64,000 nt of DNA, taken from the NCBI GenBank assembly GCA_963771355.1, contig CAVYTA010000006.1, positions 320,322 to 384,321 of the forward strand. Direction: 5' to 3'. The position numbers and the translations under genes are program-made. Source of the stretch: an uncultured Candidatus Rokubacteria bacterium. Its GTDB lineage: Bacteria > Methylomirabilota > Methylomirabilia > Rokubacteriales > CSP1-6. This document shows, piece by piece, positions 2,936 through 8,744 of the stretch. Position 1 is the first letter of the stretch, and each line of letters opens with the position of its first letter. Under the pieces are notes generated by a model. The model had not been told where the DNA came from, did no database searches, and saw only the letters and a list, made by a program, of their open reading frames with translations.

Positions 2936-4045
2936 CTAGTCCAGCCAGTCCTCGTCCTTCAGTTTCTTCGGTAGGTACGTCTTCGTGAGGTAGCGGAAGT
3001 CCTTGTTCGCCAGCGCGTCGAGCTCGTACTTGAGCCCGCTGCCGAGCATGCGCTTGATCTCTTCCTGCCAGGGTTTCTTTTCGAACCAGCGATACTTCAG
3101 GAGCTCCTTGGCTCGGCTGATGTCCTTGTCGTTGAGCTTGATGCCGACGTTGCGGGGCAGGCCGTAGGCGTCCGCGTCGGCGCTGGAGAGGCCGATGAAC
3201 TTGGCTTTGGGGATGGCCATACGCTCGCTCTCGAAGGCGAGGTTGATGGAGCCCTGCTTCACCACCGAGTAGATGTAGTAGCCCCAGGGGTCGTTGTCCA
3301 CGAGGACGTAGACGGGCAGCCTGTACTCCTCGTGGAGGCGCCGGGCCAGGCGGCGGACGCCGCGCGGGGGCTGGCCGTTGCCGGTGAGGAGCACGCAGTT
3401 GTAGCGGCGCCAGAACTTGTCCTCGGAGAGGCGGTTCCACTGGGTGCCCTTCTCGACGAGGAGGACGAAGTCGGCCGTGCAGCGGCGGATCTCGATGTAC
3501 TCGGGCTCCACGATGGACGGCACGGAGTAGCCGCCCTTGCCCAGGCGCGCGCAGTCCACCCGGTCGCCGTCGTCGCCGAACACCACCGGCCCCACGATGC
3601 TGCCGGCGTTCTCCGCGCGCACGTGGAGCTCCTCGCGGAGGGCGGCGAGCGTGACCTCCAGGTCCTCGATCAGCGGATCGGACTCGTTCTGGTTGTCGAA
3701 GGTGTTCTCGTGCGAGCCCTTCATGGTGTGCTTGGTGCGGTAGTAGATCTCGCGGAGCGAGGTGGTGAGGTTCGCCCGCTGGAGCTCCGAGAGCGCGTCC
3801 GCCACCAGCACGGTCTGCATGAACTTCTTCGCCATGCCCACGTTGAAGAAGTTGCGCGCCTGCTTGCGCTTGCCCAGCTCGATGATGCCGCGCTTGGCGT
3901 TGAAGTTGATGTTGGCCAGGCTCCGCACGGGGATGGCCAGCGTCGGGTCCTTGCTCTTCTCCGCCGCGGTGATGACCGTGTCGGCCACGCTGATGAGCTT
4001 CTTCTCCACCGCGCCCGTCTTCTTCGCCGCCGCCGCTTTGGCCAT
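2936..4045 (-). CDS. top6A: DNA topoisomerase VI subunit A (Spo11/Top6A; type IIB topoisomerase catalytic subunit)
   Basis: 369 aa. Conserved catalytic-tyrosine motif REIYYRTKH in the CAP-like domain. Toprim DxD motif in VLVDNDPWGYYIY. Size typical of archaeal Top6A. AAGGA SD upstream of the ATG at 4043-4045. Confidence 0.85.
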   Translation of the reverse strand: MAKAAAAKKTGAVEKKLISVADTVITAAEKSKDPTLAIPVRSLANINFNAKRGIIELGKRKQARNFFNVGMAKKFMQTVLVADALSELQRANLTTSLREIYYRTKHTMKGSHENTFDNQNESDPLIEDLEVTLAALREELHVRAENAGSIVGPVVFGDDGDRVDCARLGKGGYSVPSIVEPEYIEIRRCTADFVLLVEKGTQWNRLSEDKFWRRYNCVLLTGNGQPPRGVRRLARRLHEEYRLPVYVLVDNDPWGYYIYSVVKQGSINLAFESERMAIPKAKFIGLSSADADAYGLPRNVGIKLNDKDISRAKELLKYRWFEKKPWQEEIKRMLGSGLKYELDALANKDFRYLTKTYLPKKLKDEDWLD

Positions 4046-4057
4046 GAGTTCTGTCCT

Positions 4058-5041
4058 TTACTCGACGATCTGGTCCGCACGCAAGAGGAGCGTCTGGGGC
4101 AGCGTGAGGCCGAGCGCCTTGGCCGTCCGGAGATTGATGGCGAGGTAATAGCGGCTGGGCCGCTCGACGGGGAGGCTGCTCGGGGTGGCGCCCTTGAAAA
4201 GTCGGTCCACGTAGCTCGCGGCCCGGCGGTAGTTTTCGTCCGGGCTCGCGCCGTAAGACATGAGGGCGCCGTCCTGAACGGGGACGCTCACCTCGTACAT
4301 GGCGGGGATCCGGTGCATGACGGCGAACTCGATGACGCGCTTGCGATTGAGCAAGGTGAGCGCGTCCGTCACCAGGAACATGGCGTCGGGACGACGCTGC
4401 GTCATGGCGGCGAAGGCCACGTCGAAGTCATTCGGCTCGCGGACGCCGAGGGCCTGCACAGTGACGCGGAGGACCTGGGCGGCCTTCTCCACGTTCTGAT
4501 AGCGCATGGTCATGCCCAGGTCGTCGGCGTTCCAGAGGACGGCGATGCGCTCGGCCTTCGGCACGGCCTCCTTCAGGATCTCCAGGCGCTTGGCGCTGAG
4601 CTCGGCGGACTGATCAGTCACGCCCGTCACGTTGCCGCCGGGATGGGCGAGGCTGTTGATCAGGCCGAGGCCGTCGGCATCCCCCACGAGGGCCATCACG
4701 ATAGGAATGGTGGAGGTCGCTTGCCTGGAGGCGGCGGTCGCGGGCCCGCCGGCCGTCACGATGACGTCGACCTTCTCCCCCACCAGCTCGGTCGCGAGCG
4801 GAGGGAGCCGCTCTTGTCGCGCGTCGGCCCACCGGGCGACGTACACGACGTTCTGCCCCTCGACGTAGCCGAGATCCTTCAAGGCCTGCCGCAAAACTGA
4901 AGGCGCGGCGCCGTCCGGTGGCCGCGCGTTACCGGACAGGAAGCCGACGCGCCACGTCTTCCCCCGCTGCTGCGCATCGGCAGTGGCCGGCGCGGCGAGG
5001 AATGAGAGGGCGAGGAGGAGCGCAATCGCGGCGCGCAGCAT
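4058..5041 (-). CDS. Periplasmic ABC-transporter substrate-binding protein, PF04392 (ABC_sub_bind) family, orphan (no permease or ATPase adjacent)
   Basis: 327 aa. Signal peptide MLRAAIALLLALSFLAAPATADA. Family-typical segments (VGFLSGN..., KVDVIVTAGGPATAA..., IPIVMALVGD..., NVTGVTDQS...). Its ATG (5039-5041) overlaps the top6B TGA (5041-5043) as TGATG. Its stop lies 12 nt before the top6A start. Confidence 0.8.
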   Translation of the reverse strand: MLRAAIALLLALSFLAAPATADAQQRGKTWRVGFLSGNARPPDGAAPSVLRQALKDLGYVEGQNVVYVARWADARQERLPPLATELVGEKVDVIVTAGGPATAASRQATSTIPIVMALVGDADGLGLINSLAHPGGNVTGVTDQSAELSAKRLEILKEAVPKAERIAVLWNADDLGMTMRYQNVEKAAQVLRVTVQALGVREPNDFDVAFAAMTQRRPDAMFLVTDALTLLNRKRVIEFAVMHRIPAMYEVSVPVQDGALMSYGASPDENYRRAASYVDRLFKGATPSSLPVERPSRYYLAINLRTAKALGLTLPQTLLLRADQIVE

Positions 5042-7029
5042 CACTTGCGCTTGGCGGGCTTGGCCTTGCGCTTCGCGGCCTTCGCGGGCTTGGGCGCACG
5101 CTTGGTGGCCGTCGCGGTCTTCGTACCCTTCGCCTTTGCGCCTTTCGCCTTCACGGCCTTCGCCTTCTTCCCGCGCGCGGGCTTGGCGGTATCCGGCTCG
5201 GGCGCTTCGATCGCCGCCGGCTCCACCACCCCCGCCGCCTCCGGGAGCACCGGCGCCTCGCCCTCCGCGCCCTCCGGCGTCACGATGATCGAGTGCGGCA
5301 GGCCCTCGGGCCCGCTGTCGTGGCCGAGGATCTGGTCGGTCTTGGCCCCGCCGGTGCGCTTCATGGCGATCTTCTGGAGCTGGGCCTTGAGCTTCTCCTT
5401 GGGCAGCTTGCCGCCCTTGAGCCGGGCGCAGGCCTCCACGACCTCCTCGATGTAGAGCTCGAAGATGTTGCGCCGGCGGAACTCGCCCTTGGCCCGCTCG
5501 CGCCGCCGGAGGAAGACGCCGAGCCGCCGCCCGCACTCCTGCAGCGCGAGCTTGATCTCCTTCCGGATCTCGTCGTAGTCGGCGATGGCTTCCTTGGACT
5601 CGCTGGTGAACGGCACCCAGACCGAGGCCATGTGGACGAAGATCACCATGGGGCCGGCGGGGAGCGCGCCCCGCGACTGGGCGATGCCGTAGTTGCGCCA
5701 CGCGGTCTCGAGCGCGGCCTTGAAGGTGGCGCAGGCCGACTGCTGGTAGAGGAGGGGCACGCGGTTGGCGTAGCGGATGACGCGGGCCAGCTCACTGTCC
5801 TCTTCCGCCTGCTCGCCCTCGGCCAGCGGCACCGCGGGCGCGTCCAGGGCGGCGGCCTGGCCCGGGCCCTTGCCGAAGGCCAGGCCCGCCTCGATGACGA
5901 ACGGGTTGCCGCGGTACACCGACGGCGGCCGGGTCACCGCCGTGTAGAACTCCCCTTTGATCTGCTTGTAGAGGCCGTGGAGGATCGCCTTCTCGCCGAT
6001 GGGCGAGATGCAGTTGGACGGCGGCGCCATGATCTTGGTGGCCTGGATGGCCTTGTAGAGCGCCTCCGCGTCGGCGCCGTGGATGTTGCGGGGGCGCGCG
6101 TTCGGGTTGAGCTTGGCCGTCTTGCTGATCTCCTGGGCCAGCGCGGGAGACACCCGGCTGAAGTCGCCCGAGAGAAAGCCGGAGAGCCAGTGGCTGCGCG
6201 TGTCGTGGAGCATGCGCAGGAGCACGCCGAACTCGATCCCATAGGGATGCGGCTTGATCTCGCTCGGCTGGGGCGGCAGCTCCTCGATCGTCCGCGGGTA
6301 CTCGCGGGTCTCGCCGTCCGGGGCGTGGTAGACGAGCTGCACGTGCGGGTTGGCGATGGCGACCTGCTCGAGGAACTCGTCCACCGAGGCGCGGCCCTTC
6401 TGGTAGCGCCCCTCGATCTCGAGGGTCACCTGGGTGCCGCGCTCGTGCGCCCAGTCGATCTTCTTGCTCTCGAAGATCCGGGGCTCGTTCTTCTTGGTGT
6501 CGATCTGCACCTCGAAGTAGTGCGCGGCCGCCCGCGCGCCGGTGCGCGAGGTGATCTGCACCGGCTTGCCGGTGGTGATCTGGGCATACATGCCGGCCGC
6601 GGAGATGCCGATGCCCTGCTGGCCCCGGCTCATGCGGAGGCGATGGAACTTCGAGCCGTAGAGGAGCTTGGCGAAGATGGGCGGGATCTGCTGGCGGACG
6701 ATGCCGGGGCCATTGTCGCTGACGGTGACGCGGAACCGGGTGGCCTGGCTGGCCGGCGGCGGCGGCGCGCCATTGCTCGACGCCACTTCCAGCGTGACGA
6801 CCACCTCGGGCAGGATGCCGGCTTCCTCGGCGGCGTCCAGCGCATTGTCGACGGCCTCCTTGACGCAGGTGAGGAGGGCCTTGCGCGGATTGTCGAAGCC
6901 GAGGAGGTGGCGGTTCTTGGTGAAGAACTCGGAGACGGAGATGTCGCGCTGGCGGGCGCCCATCTCGGCGGCGGACGGCGGCGCCACCTTCGGCGCGGCG
7001 GGCGGAGCCTTGGCGAGCGCGATGGCCAT
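5041..7029 (-). CDS. top6B: DNA topoisomerase VI subunit B (GHKL ATPase + transducer) with a C-terminal Lys/Ala-rich histone-H1-like basic tail
   Basis: 662 aa. Bergerat-fold motifs are present: N-box EAVDNALDA, G1 VSDNGPGI, G2 GQQGIGIS. N-terminal region resembles Top6B (ISVSEFFTKNRHLLGF). The last ~60 aa are ...AKPARGKKAKAVKAKGAKAKGTKTATATKRAPKPAKAAKRKAKPAKRK. Confidence 0.85.
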   Translation of the reverse strand: MAIALAKAPPAAPKVAPPSAAEMGARQRDISVSEFFTKNRHLLGFDNPRKALLTCVKEAVDNALDAAEEAGILPEVVVTLEVASSNGAPPPPASQATRFRVTVSDNGPGIVRQQIPPIFAKLLYGSKFHRLRMSRGQQGIGISAAGMYAQITTGKPVQITSRTGARAAAHYFEVQIDTKKNEPRIFESKKIDWAHERGTQVTLEIEGRYQKGRASVDEFLEQVAIANPHVQLVYHAPDGETREYPRTIEELPPQPSEIKPHPYGIEFGVLLRMLHDTRSHWLSGFLSGDFSRVSPALAQEISKTAKLNPNARPRNIHGADAEALYKAIQATKIMAPPSNCISPIGEKAILHGLYKQIKGEFYTAVTRPPSVYRGNPFVIEAGLAFGKGPGQAAALDAPAVPLAEGEQAEEDSELARVIRYANRVPLLYQQSACATFKAALETAWRNYGIAQSRGALPAGPMVIFVHMASVWVPFTSESKEAIADYDEIRKEIKLALQECGRRLGVFLRRRERAKGEFRRRNIFELYIEEVVEACARLKGGKLPKEKLKAQLQKIAMKRTGGAKTDQILGHDSGPEGLPHSIIVTPEGAEGEAPVLPEAAGVVEPAAIEAPEPDTAKPARGKKAKAVKAKGAKAKGTKTATATKRAPKPAKAAKRKAKPAKRK

Positions 7030-7058
7030 GCCCCACTTGATACCAGACCCGTGCTCGA

Positions 7059-7853
7059 TTGGCCCCCCGAAAATGTCCGTGGCAGAATGACGGCATGAGT
7101 ACCTCGACTCGCCTGGCCGTGCTCAGCGTGCTCGTCGCGATCGGCGCCGTCGCGACCTACGTGCTCCTCCTCGGGGTGGCGGTGGTGCGGAACCACCCGG
7201 AGGGCTATGTGATCGCGTTCGCGGTGGCGACGGGCCTGGCGGTGCTCGCCGTGGTTCGCGCGCGGACACGGCGCTGGCCCGCCTGGGTGGCGCTGGGCGT
7301 CACGAGCCTCCTGCTGATCGCCGGCGCCTGGTTCAACTTCGTGGTGACGCGGGTGCCCGATGCTCCGGTGGCGTTCAAGGTGGGCGAGCCGGCACCGGAC
7401 TTCACCTTGCCCGATGCGGCGGGCCGTCCCGTCGCGCTGGCGGACTATCGCGGCAAGAAGCCGGTGGTGCTCGTCTTCTACCGCGGCTACTGGTGACCGT
7501 TCTGCGTGTCCGAGCTCCAAGGTCTTGGAGCCCAGCTTTCGGAGGCCGAGCAGGCGGGCGTCGAGATCATCGCCATCTCGCCCGATCCCAACCAGCGCAG
7601 CCAGGAGCTCGCCGAGGGCCTGCGCCTCGGCTATCGGTTCGTCGCCGACGGCGATCTCGCGGTGGCGCGGCGCTACGGGCTCGTCCACGCGGGCGGGGGG
7701 CCGGAGGGAAAGGACGTGCCGCGCCCGGCCACGGTGGTGCTGGACAAGCAGGGGGTCGTGCGCTGGTTCTCGGCCAGCCACAACTTCCAGGTGCGGCCCG
7801 CTCCCGGCGAGGTGCTCCGCGTGGTTCGTTCCCTCGTGGCGGAAAAGGGCTAG
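7059..7853 (+). CDS. Candidate selenoprotein: membrane-anchored peroxiredoxin/redoxin-family (AhpC/TSA-like) protein with in-frame UGA (Sec) at 7494-7496 in a U-P-F-C redox motif
   Basis: ORFs 7059..7496 and 7506..7853 share a frame and are separated only by TGA. The combined translation gives 2-3 N-terminal TM helices, then ...FKVGEPAPDFTLPDAAGRPVALADYRGKKPVVLVFYRGYW-U-PFCVSELQGLGAQL..., the canonical peroxiredoxin/BCP architecture. The TGA sits exactly where the peroxidatic Cys belongs. A SECIS-like hairpin lies 17 nt downstream. An alternative start is the ATG at 7095 (MSTSTRL...). Confidence 0.65.
7514..7531 (+). promoter_or_regulatory. Putative bacterial selenocysteine insertion sequence (SECIS) hairpin: 7-bp stem GCUCCAA/UUGGAGC with GGUC apical loop
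   Basis: Perfect 7-bp stem (7514-7520 pairing with 7525-7531) closing a 4-nt loop GGUC (7521-7524). It begins 17 nt after the in-frame UGA (7494-7496). This position and the G/U-containing apical loop resemble the E. coli fdhF SECIS upper stem-loop. Confidence 0.5.
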
Positions 7854-7862
7854 AATCGCCCC

Positions 7863-8744
7863 ATGAAGATCCGCATCGGGGTGGGAGCGTCCGGCGCATC
7901 GTCCACGCCGGAGGCGCTGGGCGAGCTGGTGGCGTCGATCGACGAGCTGGGGTTCGACTCGCTCTGGCTCTCGGAGGTGCTGACGGGGCCCGTGATCGAT
8001 CCCGCGGTGGGGCTGGCCTGGGCGGCGGCGAGCAATCCGCGGGTGAAGCTCGGGACCACCATGCTGCTGCCGGGGCGCAATGTGCTGCGGCTGGCCAAGC
8101 AGCTCGCCAGCCTCGACGTGCTCTGCCGGGGCCGGCTCCTGGTGACGCTCGTGCCCGGGCTCACCTATCCGCCGGAGCGCGAGGCCATCGGCGTGGAGCC
8201 CAAGCAGCGCGGCGCCGTCATCGACGAGGCGCTGCCGCTGCTGCGTCGCCTCTGGGCGGGGGAGACGGTGAGCCACGAGGGCGTCGCCGGGACCTTCCAG
8301 AACGTCAAGCTGTCGCCGCTGCCGGTGCAGCAGCCGCTGGAAGTCTGGCTGGGCGGCAACGTGCCCTCGGCGCTCGAGCGCTGCGGGCGCTTGTCGGACG
8401 GCTGGCTGCCGTCGCTCTGCACGCCCGAGGAGGCGGCCGCGGGGCGCGTCGTGATCGAGGAGGCGGCGGCCAAGGCCGGCCGCTCGATCAGCGGCGAGCA
8501 CTTCGGCATGAGCATCGGCTACGCCAGCAAGCCCATCGACCCGGCCACCGCGCGGGTGATGGCGGCGCGGCGCCCCCGGGCCCTCGAGCTCACGCCGGTG
8601 GGCTTGCCGGCCCTGCGCCAGCTCATCGAGCGCTTCATCGCCGTGGGCTTCTCCAAGTTCGTCCTGCGGCCGGTGGCCCCGCCGGCCTCCTGGCGCGCCG
8701 AGCTGGATGCCCTCGCCGGTGCCGTCGGCGACCTTCAGACCTGA
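7863..8744 (+). CDS. LLM-class F420-dependent oxidoreductase (luciferase-like monooxygenase family)
   Basis: 293 aa. LLM TIM-barrel family resemblance throughout (ELGFDSLWLSE..., LLPGRNVLRLAKQLASLDVLCRGRL). Confidence 0.85.
   Translation: MKIRIGVGASGASSTPEALGELVASIDELGFDSLWLSEVLTGPVIDPAVGLAWAAASNPRVKLGTTMLLPGRNVLRLAKQLASLDVLCRGRLLVTLVPGLTYPPEREAIGVEPKQRGAVIDEALPLLRRLWAGETVSHEGVAGTFQNVKLSPLPVQQPLEVWLGGNVPSALERCGRLSDGWLPSLCTPEEAAAGRVVIEEAAAKAGRSISGEHFGMSIGYASKPIDPATARVMAARRPRALELTPVGLPALRQLIERFIAVGFSKFVLRPVAPPASWRAELDALAGAVGDLQT

Follow-up and report, generated by a model that had tools for sequence, protein, structure and literature searches.

An in-frame UGA in a membrane-anchored peroxiredoxin-like gene of a Rokubacteria bacterium is probably a selenocysteine codon

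Introduction

A family of peroxiredoxin-like (Prx-like) thiol:disulfide oxidoreductase selenoproteins, with the Pfam domain PF00578 and a UxxC motif in which U stands for selenocysteine (Sec), was predicted in 2004 by Kryukov and Gladyshev (Table 1 of PMC13188914), and the same family is the 'Prx-like 1' of the Global Ocean Sampling (GOS) study, abundant in marine metagenomes. Here we describe a gene that belongs to this known selenoprotein family, in a lineage already recognised as selenoprotein-rich. The gene was found in a stretch of 64,000 nucleotides (hereafter the window) of contig CAVYTA010000006.1, from an uncultured Candidatus Rokubacteria bacterium of the phylum Methylomirabilota, and its reading frame is interrupted by a UGA codon. 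Our analysis indicates that positions 7095-7853 of the window are one gene, and that the UGA at 7494-7496 is very probably read as Sec by means of a hairpin at 7514-7531 acting as a bacterial selenocysteine insertion sequence (SECIS).

The locus shares with the described Prx-like family the AhpC/TSA domain, the position of U as first residue of UxxC, the existence of homologues with Cys, and a bacterial SECIS directly after the UGA. It differs in carrying a three-helix transmembrane (TM) anchor and in belonging to a clade so far seen only in Methylomirabilota/Rokubacteria, the comparison being with the description of the family, whose reference sequence is WP_010940744.1. As for the lineage, a 2026 review (PMC13188914) cites a Methylomirabilota metagenome-assembled genome (MAG) in which 63 selenoproteins are predicted, the highest number reported for a bacterium, and Sec-type group 4 hydrogenases have been reported in the phylum (PMC13582414).

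The consensus for bacterial SECIS elements (Zhang and Gladyshev; legend to Fig. 2 of PMC13188914) has a loop of 3-9 nt on a stem of 4-16 bp, with G at one or both of the first two loop positions, usually G and then G or U. The distance from UGA to loop is 16-37 nt, and the minimum free energy is -7.5 kcal/mol or lower (PMC13188914).

Results and Discussion

One domain across the UGA

A first-pass annotation of this DNA had proposed that two open reading frames, 7059..7496 and 7506..7853 on the plus strand, which an annotator would call separately, are in the same frame and are split only by the TGA. The window sequence agrees with this, the TGA standing in frame between the two. Translation across it gives ...KKPVVLVFYRGYW*PFCVSELQGLGAQL..., and the peptide immediately around the codon is ...VVLVFYRGYW*PFCVSELQGLG.... 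In the source assembly (ENA ERZ25039531, contig_121, 1.41 Mb) the window occupies roughly 105,715-169,714 of the contig, and two genes are called here, of 133 and 115 amino acids, each with an AhpC-TSA match. When Cys was put at the stop, the AhpC/TSA domain (Pfam PF00578, E = 5e-32) was found at 7380..7766 on the plus strand, corresponding to residues 96-224. The score was 110.9 bits against a cut-off of 26, and the match covered profile positions 1-123 of 124, extending across the TGA. Because the profile matches on both sides of the codon, a single thioredoxin-fold domain runs across it. The features of the gene are collected in Table 1.

Table 1. Features of the UGA-containing gene in the window; residue numbers count from the likely start at 7095
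Feature	Position	Strand	Basis or remark
Complete coding sequence, predicted Prx-like selenoprotein	7095..7853	+	252 codons including the Sec codon; stop TAG 7851-7853
In-frame UGA, predicted Sec codon (residue 134)	7494..7496	+	TGA in 97/97 orthologues; aligns with Cys in WCPFC homologues
U-P-F-C redox motif (U134, C137)	7494..7505	+	Alignment to WCxxC of 3ia1 and 3hdc
SECIS-like hairpin, 7-bp stem GCUCCAA/UUGGAGC, apical loop GGUC (7521-7524)	7514..7531	+	
TM helix 1, residues ~7-31	7113..7187	+	Hydrophobic stretch
TM helix 2, residues ~38-55	7206..7259	+	Conserved loop VRNHPEGY precedes
TM helix 3, residues ~62-85	7278..7349	+	Basic loop RARTRRW precedes, predicted cytoplasmic
TGGCAGAAT, extended -10-like motif, putative promoter	7080..7088	+	6 nt upstream of ATG 7095

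Conservation of the UGA and selection on the gene

Orthologues were collected from 17 Methylomirabilota/Rokubacteria MAGs (one genome per species, 64-80% identity) and from 80 metagenome loci. In what follows, 18 sequences means the window plus the 17 genomes, and 98 sequences means these 18 plus the 80 metagenome loci. The TGA was kept in 17/17 species genomes, with the same hairpin in each, and TGA and hairpin were both present in 80/80 metagenome orthologues, which comprised 47 distinct 48-mers around the site.

When 5.8 billion proteins were searched, the matches included dozens of close homologues, 138-152 amino acids long, that covered only the first 53% of the query. Among the 120 best protein matches, 70 stop exactly at ...RG.W, five start just past the hairpin codons, five read Trp at the stop position, and 27 have Cys there, in the form WCPFC or WCPYC. 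The expectation that standard gene callers would break this gene into two fragments was thus confirmed, both by the truncated matches and by the calls in the source assembly; likewise, the U of W-U-P-F-C falls on the conserved Cys of the 27 Cys-form homologues, as had been anticipated. One relative (P0010) that is 74% identical has Cys at the Sec position, and the more distant homologues of Gemmatimonadaceae and Pyrinomonadaceae have TGC at this codon, without the hairpin.

The recoded codon is also found beyond the immediate clade. Within the wider FYRGxW[U/C]PxC family, TGA stands at this codon in three other clades as well, followed in each by a separate hairpin with a G within the first two loop positions. 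The five Trp-reading proteins (P0088, P0089, P0091, P0104 and P0106), labelled 'peroxiredoxin' and showing YWWPFC or HWWPYC, lie on short contigs. We looked at the DNA of four of these entries (P0088, P0089, P0091 and P0104; JGI metagenome contigs L035-L037 and L039) and it has TGA in all four, the Trp being false because the gene caller had evidently read TGA under genetic code 4 on short contigs, so that selenoprotein genes are concealed. These four genes belong to two further clades, one with three TM helices and ~58% GC, the other with a signal peptide and 52% GC. The hairpins of the two clades are CCUCG-AGUUA-CGAGG, 16 nt past the UGA, and GCAGCUC-GGC-GAGCUGC, 21 nt past it.

Rates of substitution were estimated by the Nei-Gojobori method. 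The ratio of nonsynonymous to synonymous rates (dN/dS) was 0.18 for the portion of the redoxin that precedes the UGA and 0.23 for the 98 codons after it, with dS at ~0.63-0.68 outside codons +1 to +12, counted from the UGA. Given the value of 0.23, the half after the UGA is both translated in this frame and maintained by selection. No frameshifts or extra stops were found in the gene.

Reassignment of UGA throughout the genome was considered and rejected: TGA is the commonest ordinary stop in the window, where it ends 28 of the 45 confident open reading frames. In a scan of the whole window for in-frame TGAs within coding frames of high third-position GC, only antisense-frame junk was found besides the TGA at 7494.

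The hairpin downstream of the UGA

The perfect stem, its GGUC loop and its start 17 nt past the UGA had been described in the first-pass annotation; all three are present in the sequence, and the hairpin forms part of the minimum-free-energy fold. The claim that spacing and loop are those of a bacterial SECIS held as well, the element agreeing with the published consensus on all four counts. The loop has 4 nt (GGUC or GGGC) and the stem 7 bp, extended to 9 bp in two orthologues (L011 and L016). The loop opens with GG in 98/98 sequences. Between UGA and loop there are 24 nt (7497-7520), a spacing from which no orthologue departs. The energy of the 22-nt hairpin ranges from -10.1 to -13.6 kcal/mol in 18/18 sequences, compared with -0.4 to -6.1 kcal/mol for the same stretch in Cys homologues.

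The SECIS of E. coli fdhF (MG1655 sequence) is the natural comparison. It too lies inside the coding region, immediately 3' to the UGA, with an identical GGUC tetraloop on a short G+C-rich stem. However, the UGA-loop spacing, 24 nt here, is 18 nt in fdhF, the present stem, a perfect 7 bp, lacks the bulged U of fdhF, the stem sequences are unrelated, and about half of the orthologues carry GGGC (or GGAC) where fdhF has GGUC.

Selection at the RNA level is visible in the codons that make up the stem, CTC-CAA-GGN-CTT-GGA. Three of them are rare: within their synonymous families in the window, CAA has a share of 5.9%, CTT of 2.0% and GGA of 5.6%, and all three are fixed in 18/18 genomes. Among the 80 metagenome sequences the stem differs in only two, both with GGG for GGA, which preserves a U.G pair. 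By comparison, each of the four bases occurs at the four-fold site of the loop (T 40, G 30, A 9 and C 1 in the same 80 sequences), and there is free variation at the four-fold sites immediately flanking the stem. In codons +1 to +12, dS is 0.35 as against 0.63-0.68 elsewhere, and dN is 0.034 as against ~0.13 in the neighbouring regions. The peptide ELQGLG, invariant in the Sec clade, varies among Cys homologues; being fixed in the Sec clade only, it shows that the RNA element constrains the protein as well.

Points against a selenocysteine codon

Several results weigh against the reading of the UGA as Sec, or at least give it no help. Taken in full, the 67-nt stretch shows no unusual stability (z = -1.4), and consequently thermodynamics alone would not single out the hairpin. 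A search of the whole window with Rfam at gathering thresholds gave no matches, a result that is uninformative for bacterial SECIS elements. RNAalifold and pair counting found no compensatory changes, all seven pairs being invariant in the 18 sequences. Each pair joins a third-codon, synonymous site to a first or second codon position elsewhere, so double changes would alter the peptide; what the alignment offers in support of the putative SECIS at the RNA level is frozen synonymous sites, not covariation. Neither the 64-kb window nor the flanks that were fetched matched E. coli SelA, SelB or SelD used as tblastn queries, and ARAGORN found no tRNA-Sec in the window or in 19 loci. These absences are uninformative, because the window is 64 kb of a contig of at least 1.4 Mb, itself part of a far larger genome. 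Such support as there is for the decoding machinery is at the level of the phylum, from the literature cited above and from the further selenoprotein candidates described below. Gene order, too, revealed no conserved operon partner that would point to a substrate. The structural model used below is an AlphaFold model of a Cys-type homologue (P0082, 38% identical), taken as a proxy and not a model of the window protein. Finally, sequence alone cannot tell the insertion of Sec from that of Cys.

Alternative readings of the UGA

The last of these points bears on the alternative that survives best, a very unlikely one in our judgement. The UGA could be recoded by way of the hairpin and SelB, but as Cys, by a tRNA-ReC (SelC*)-type tRNA, and the protein would then have an ordinary CxxC centre. 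A tRNA-ReC reads SECIS-dependent UGA as Cys and is present in ~13-17% of the genomes surveyed (PMC13582414), and Cys is functionally tolerated at this position, as the true Cys codon of the 74%-identical P0010 shows. However, no tRNA-ReC was seen by ARAGORN in the window or the 19 loci, and in the PMC13582414 survey such tRNAs are tied mainly to UXXU-type genes in other phyla. Cys insertion would also make it hard to explain why a TGA and a costly hairpin are kept in 97/97 orthologues, when one change from TGA to TGC or TGT would give the same protein.

Still less probable is that the UGA is a true stop, leaving either two genes or a shortened membrane protein with a second frame behind it that starts translation on its own. 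Gene callers do annotate two genes, and a possible start codon (GTG at 7506 in the window, ATG in many orthologues) lies three codons after the TGA. This start is not conserved, being GCG in one orthologue (L014) and AAC in another (L017), and the split would cut one thioredoxin-fold domain midway, at its active-site motif. Moreover, the first-pass annotation would have been contradicted by homologues in which the two frames are normally independent genes; what we found were full-length Cys-type homologues and, in 97/97 loci, two halves that are always adjacent, in frame and separated by nothing but the TGA.

We attach a similarly small probability to the idea that the hairpin has another role, for example in mRNA stability, in pausing for membrane insertion or in regulation, with the UGA read by a near-cognate tRNA such as that for Trp. 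Neither covariation nor experiment ties the hairpin to SelB, and some gene callers do render the homologous TGA as Trp. These calls, however, are the code 4 artefacts described above, and Trp at the nucleophile of the CxxC motif would kill redox activity, whereas every homologue without TGA has Cys there. The hairpin also fits the SECIS model in loop and spacing, its GGUC loop being that of E. coli fdhF, and in independent clades the same TGA is accompanied by other hairpins, again with a G within the first two loop positions.

A pseudogene, or a sequencing or assembly error that turned TGC or TGT into TGA by the single base that separates them, is scarcely credible when the identical TGA recurs in 97 sequences that were assembled independently of one another, from many samples and species, and when the downstream half has a dN/dS of 0.23 and neither frameshifts nor added stops. 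Conservation of the TGA together with selection downstream of it therefore excludes sequencing error, a pseudogene and two unrelated genes. From the patterns of conservation, we consider the UGA-recoded gene to be genuine and its product most likely to be a selenoprotein.

Fold, redox centre and membrane anchor

The P0082 model (predicted local distance difference test, pLDDT, 84; predicted template modelling score, pTM, 0.73) has helices at residues 18-38, 41-68 and 72-96, followed by a confident thioredoxin fold, the redoxin domain reaching pLDDT > 93. Its closest folds in a Foldseek search were Bcp4, BcpB, PrxQ and AhpE, with target-normalised TM-scores of 0.82-0.89, and then ResA. By sequence, the best solved relatives of the window protein were the BCP-type structures 2ywn and 2cx3 (E ~1e-14), followed by the thioredoxin-like 3ia1 and 3hdc, and ResA.

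The redox centre does not follow the peroxiredoxin pattern. W-U-P-F-C superimposes exactly on WCTVC of 3ia1 and WCPYC of 3hdc. In alignment with the peroxiredoxin 2ywn, U134 takes the place of the Thr of TxxC and C137 that of the peroxidatic Cys. The motif R130-G-Y-W-U134-P-F-C137 departs from the peroxiredoxin signature PxxxTxxC in having Arg for the Pro of FYP and Sec for Thr. The catalytic Arg of 2ywn (in AKRAVF) aligns with Pro211, which is invariant across the family, so the peroxiredoxin Arg is lacking as well; according to the alignment, Pro211 matches the Pro in GQPWTF of 3ia1, which is the cis-Pro position. The first-pass annotation was accordingly right about the AhpC/TSA domain and the UxxC motif, but its placing of the UGA at a peroxidatic/resolving Cys pair needs correction, U being the first position of a thioredoxin-type CxxC and the counterpart of the Thr of TxxC, not of the canonical peroxidatic Cys. 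The protein has a Prx-like scaffold with a thioredoxin-type redox centre, and is probably not a canonical Cys-peroxidatic peroxiredoxin.

These features place it between several known groups. The BCP/PrxQ and AhpE proteins (3hjp, 2ywn, 2cx3, 1xvw) are the best matches in sequence (E = 1e-14) and in fold, and C137 aligns with their peroxidatic Cys. However, RxxxUxxC is found here in place of their PxxxTxxC, and Pro211 in place of their catalytic Arg. With proteins of the ResA/TlpA/CcmG type the shared features are a motif of the W-C-x-x-C type, Pro at the cis-Pro position, a membrane anchor and a redox domain predicted to be extracytoplasmic, but the present protein has three TM helices and not one, a scaffold nearer to BCP, and Sec for Cys.

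GPx-type UxxT selenoenzymes presumably carry their Sec at the same position of the thioredoxin fold, as the first residue of a CxxC-equivalent motif. Unlike GPx, the protein has no GPx sequence signature and no Pfam GSHPx match, and the resolving Cys at +3 takes the place of a Thr in GPx.

Scores against the NCBIfam models for ResA (49.5 bits, cut-off 170) and TlpA (25.7 bits, cut-off 230) were below threshold. The same was true of the NCBIfam selenoprotein models PrxU (NF040737, 37.2 bits against 270), SelL-related (NF040769, 46 against 120) and WAxxUGC (NF041054, 22.2 against 300). Since no NCBIfam model reaches its cut-off, the clade falls outside any named model.

Two or three TM helices ahead of the redoxin domain had been proposed; the membrane anchor is upheld, and the number can be refined to three. 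The loop between the second and third of them (RARTRRW) has on average +3.6 K/R and 0.06 D/E residues over 62 sequences, and the first loop (RNHPEG) is net neutral. By the positive-inside rule, the basic second loop puts the N-terminus inside and the redoxin domain outside. In many Cys homologues an N-terminal signal peptide takes the place of the TM anchor. Judging from these sequence features, the redoxin domain is probably extracytoplasmic.

Proposed mechanism

As to decoding, topology, chemistry and substrate, we infer the following scheme. The ribosome would read the UGA as Sec, the hairpin recruiting SelB.GTP.Sec-tRNASec when the UGA sits in the A site. The product would be a protein of 252 residues whose N-terminus lies in the cytoplasm. 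Its three N-terminal TM helices would be followed by a thioredoxin-fold domain on the extracytoplasmic side, combining a BCP/PrxQ-like scaffold with a thioredoxin-type active site. Sec134, at the first position of U-P-F-C, would be the exposed nucleophile and Cys137 the resolving residue, with the invariant Pro211 at the cis-Pro position. The catalytic cycle would most likely pass between selenol/thiol and selenenylsulfide, and the enzyme may serve as a periplasm-facing thiol:disulfide oxidoreductase or as a GPx-like hydroperoxide reductase.

Perhaps the clade goes further and represents an undescribed subfamily found only in Methylomirabilota: a three-TM, outward-facing FYRGYW-U-PFC selenoenzyme with a peroxiredoxin scaffold and Sec at the nucleophile position of GPx and thioredoxin, acting as a GPx-like selenoperoxidase or as a selenol-based disulfide reductase of the envelope. 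We offer this only tentatively and think it rather less probable than its contrary.

Start codon and upstream motif

The positions given in the first-pass annotation for the TGA, the two reading frames and the hairpin were correct, but not the start, for which TTG at 7059 had been taken. The likely start is the ATG at 7095, where the N-terminal fragment called in the source assembly also begins. TTG 7059 was rejected because the 'PWQN' encoded upstream is a DNA motif that lies in differing reading frames among the orthologues, with stops sometimes before it. This motif, TGGCA(G/C)AAT, stands 6-9 nt ahead of an ATG or GTG start in most orthologues, and in some of them there are in-frame stops upstream of it. 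No Shine-Dalgarno sequence was found between the motif and the start codon. Its form in the window, TGGCAGAAT, occurs only once in the whole window. The sequence of the motif resembles an extended -10 element, which may give rise to a leaderless or near-leaderless mRNA. A scan for sigma-70 promoters and terminators over 6900-8000 found none, the scanner being one that requires a -35 element. Gene callers often translate the TGGCA(G/C)AAT motif and thereby give these proteins a spurious N-terminal 'PWQN' extension.

Neighbourhood and unusual sequences

This bacterium has genes for topoisomerase VI subunits A (2936-4045) and B (5041-7029) on the minus strand, and between the two lies a gene for an ABC-type substrate-binding protein (4058-5041, minus strand). 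The topoisomerase VI B gene is divergent from the UGA-containing gene, an arrangement common only to its closest relatives (L001, L003, L008 and L011).

A few sequences among those collected are unusual. Two contigs of one Rokubacteria MAG (L027:5599-5694 and L028:10001-10096) share an identical stretch of ~1 kb that ends in ...ADYRGKKPVVLVF-stop and adjoins a tRNA-Ser and tRNA-Arg cluster; it looks like a remnant or fragment of a redoxin gene, or an assembly duplication. Three database proteins (P0001, P0016 and P0073, source 'src') look like chimeric protein-level assemblies due to the in-frame stop.

Other candidate selenoprotein genes

Further in-frame TGAs were seen in the fetched loci. 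Two of them fall in candidate genes from known selenoprotein families, each with a hairpin like a bacterial SECIS and each on a Rokubacteria contig that also carries an orthologue, which speaks for the reading of the UGA as Sec. In Candidatus Rokuibacteriota JBOHQB010000118.1, ~6 kb from the orthologue, there is a candidate selenoprotein PrxQ/BCP gene (L012:394-867, TGA at 562). It is complete, with FFPKADTPG-U-TAEGC and the TGA at the peroxidatic Cys (TxxU); the Pfam AhpC-TSA match runs across this codon, and 17 nt past the UGA comes a 9-bp hairpin, GGGUUGCGG-GUU-CCGCGACCU. On the minus strand of Candidatus Rokuibacteriota JBBIIW010000084.1 (L017, TGA at 5910) we found a DsrE-like frame with ...NWYV-U-GLCC... 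(UxxC), in which the Pfam DsrE match covers positions 6-113 of 116 across the TGA; DsrE-like proteins are a known selenoprotein family. A 7-bp hairpin, GUGGAAC-GGGGC-GUUCCAC, was found by eye 19 nt past this UGA.

In Planctomycetota MAGs (L025, L026 and L029-L032), thioredoxin-fold genes have an in-frame TGA in the context FGSFT-U-GPF or FGSYT-U-PPF (deiodinase-like), together with a long N-terminal region whose DxDGDGxV motifs resemble EF-hands. Single cases were seen in Proteobacteria (L021, AFTKG-U, a peroxiredoxin of the TxxU type) and in Chloroflexi (L022, GFA-U-PYC, Prx-like of the UxxC type).

Significance

The main value of this work is a correction of annotation, and the understanding of Sec decoding or of Prx-like selenoproteins is unchanged by it. 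The correction concerns many entries: of the 120 nearest proteins in the database, 70 break off at the Sec codon and a further five wrongly show Trp there. Because this mis-annotation is systematic, it distorts inventories of domains, of the membrane proteome and of the selenoproteome in Methylomirabilota/Rokubacteria, an abundant soil phylum. The SECIS stem, frozen across the clade, could point to recognition by the SelB of this phylum that is specific to sequence and not merely to shape. The gene is also a clean natural example of a SECIS that limits both codon choice and the peptide ELQGLG, in the helix that follows the active site. Finally, it adds a membrane-anchored and probably envelope-facing selenoprotein to the phylum with the largest reported bacterial selenoproteome.

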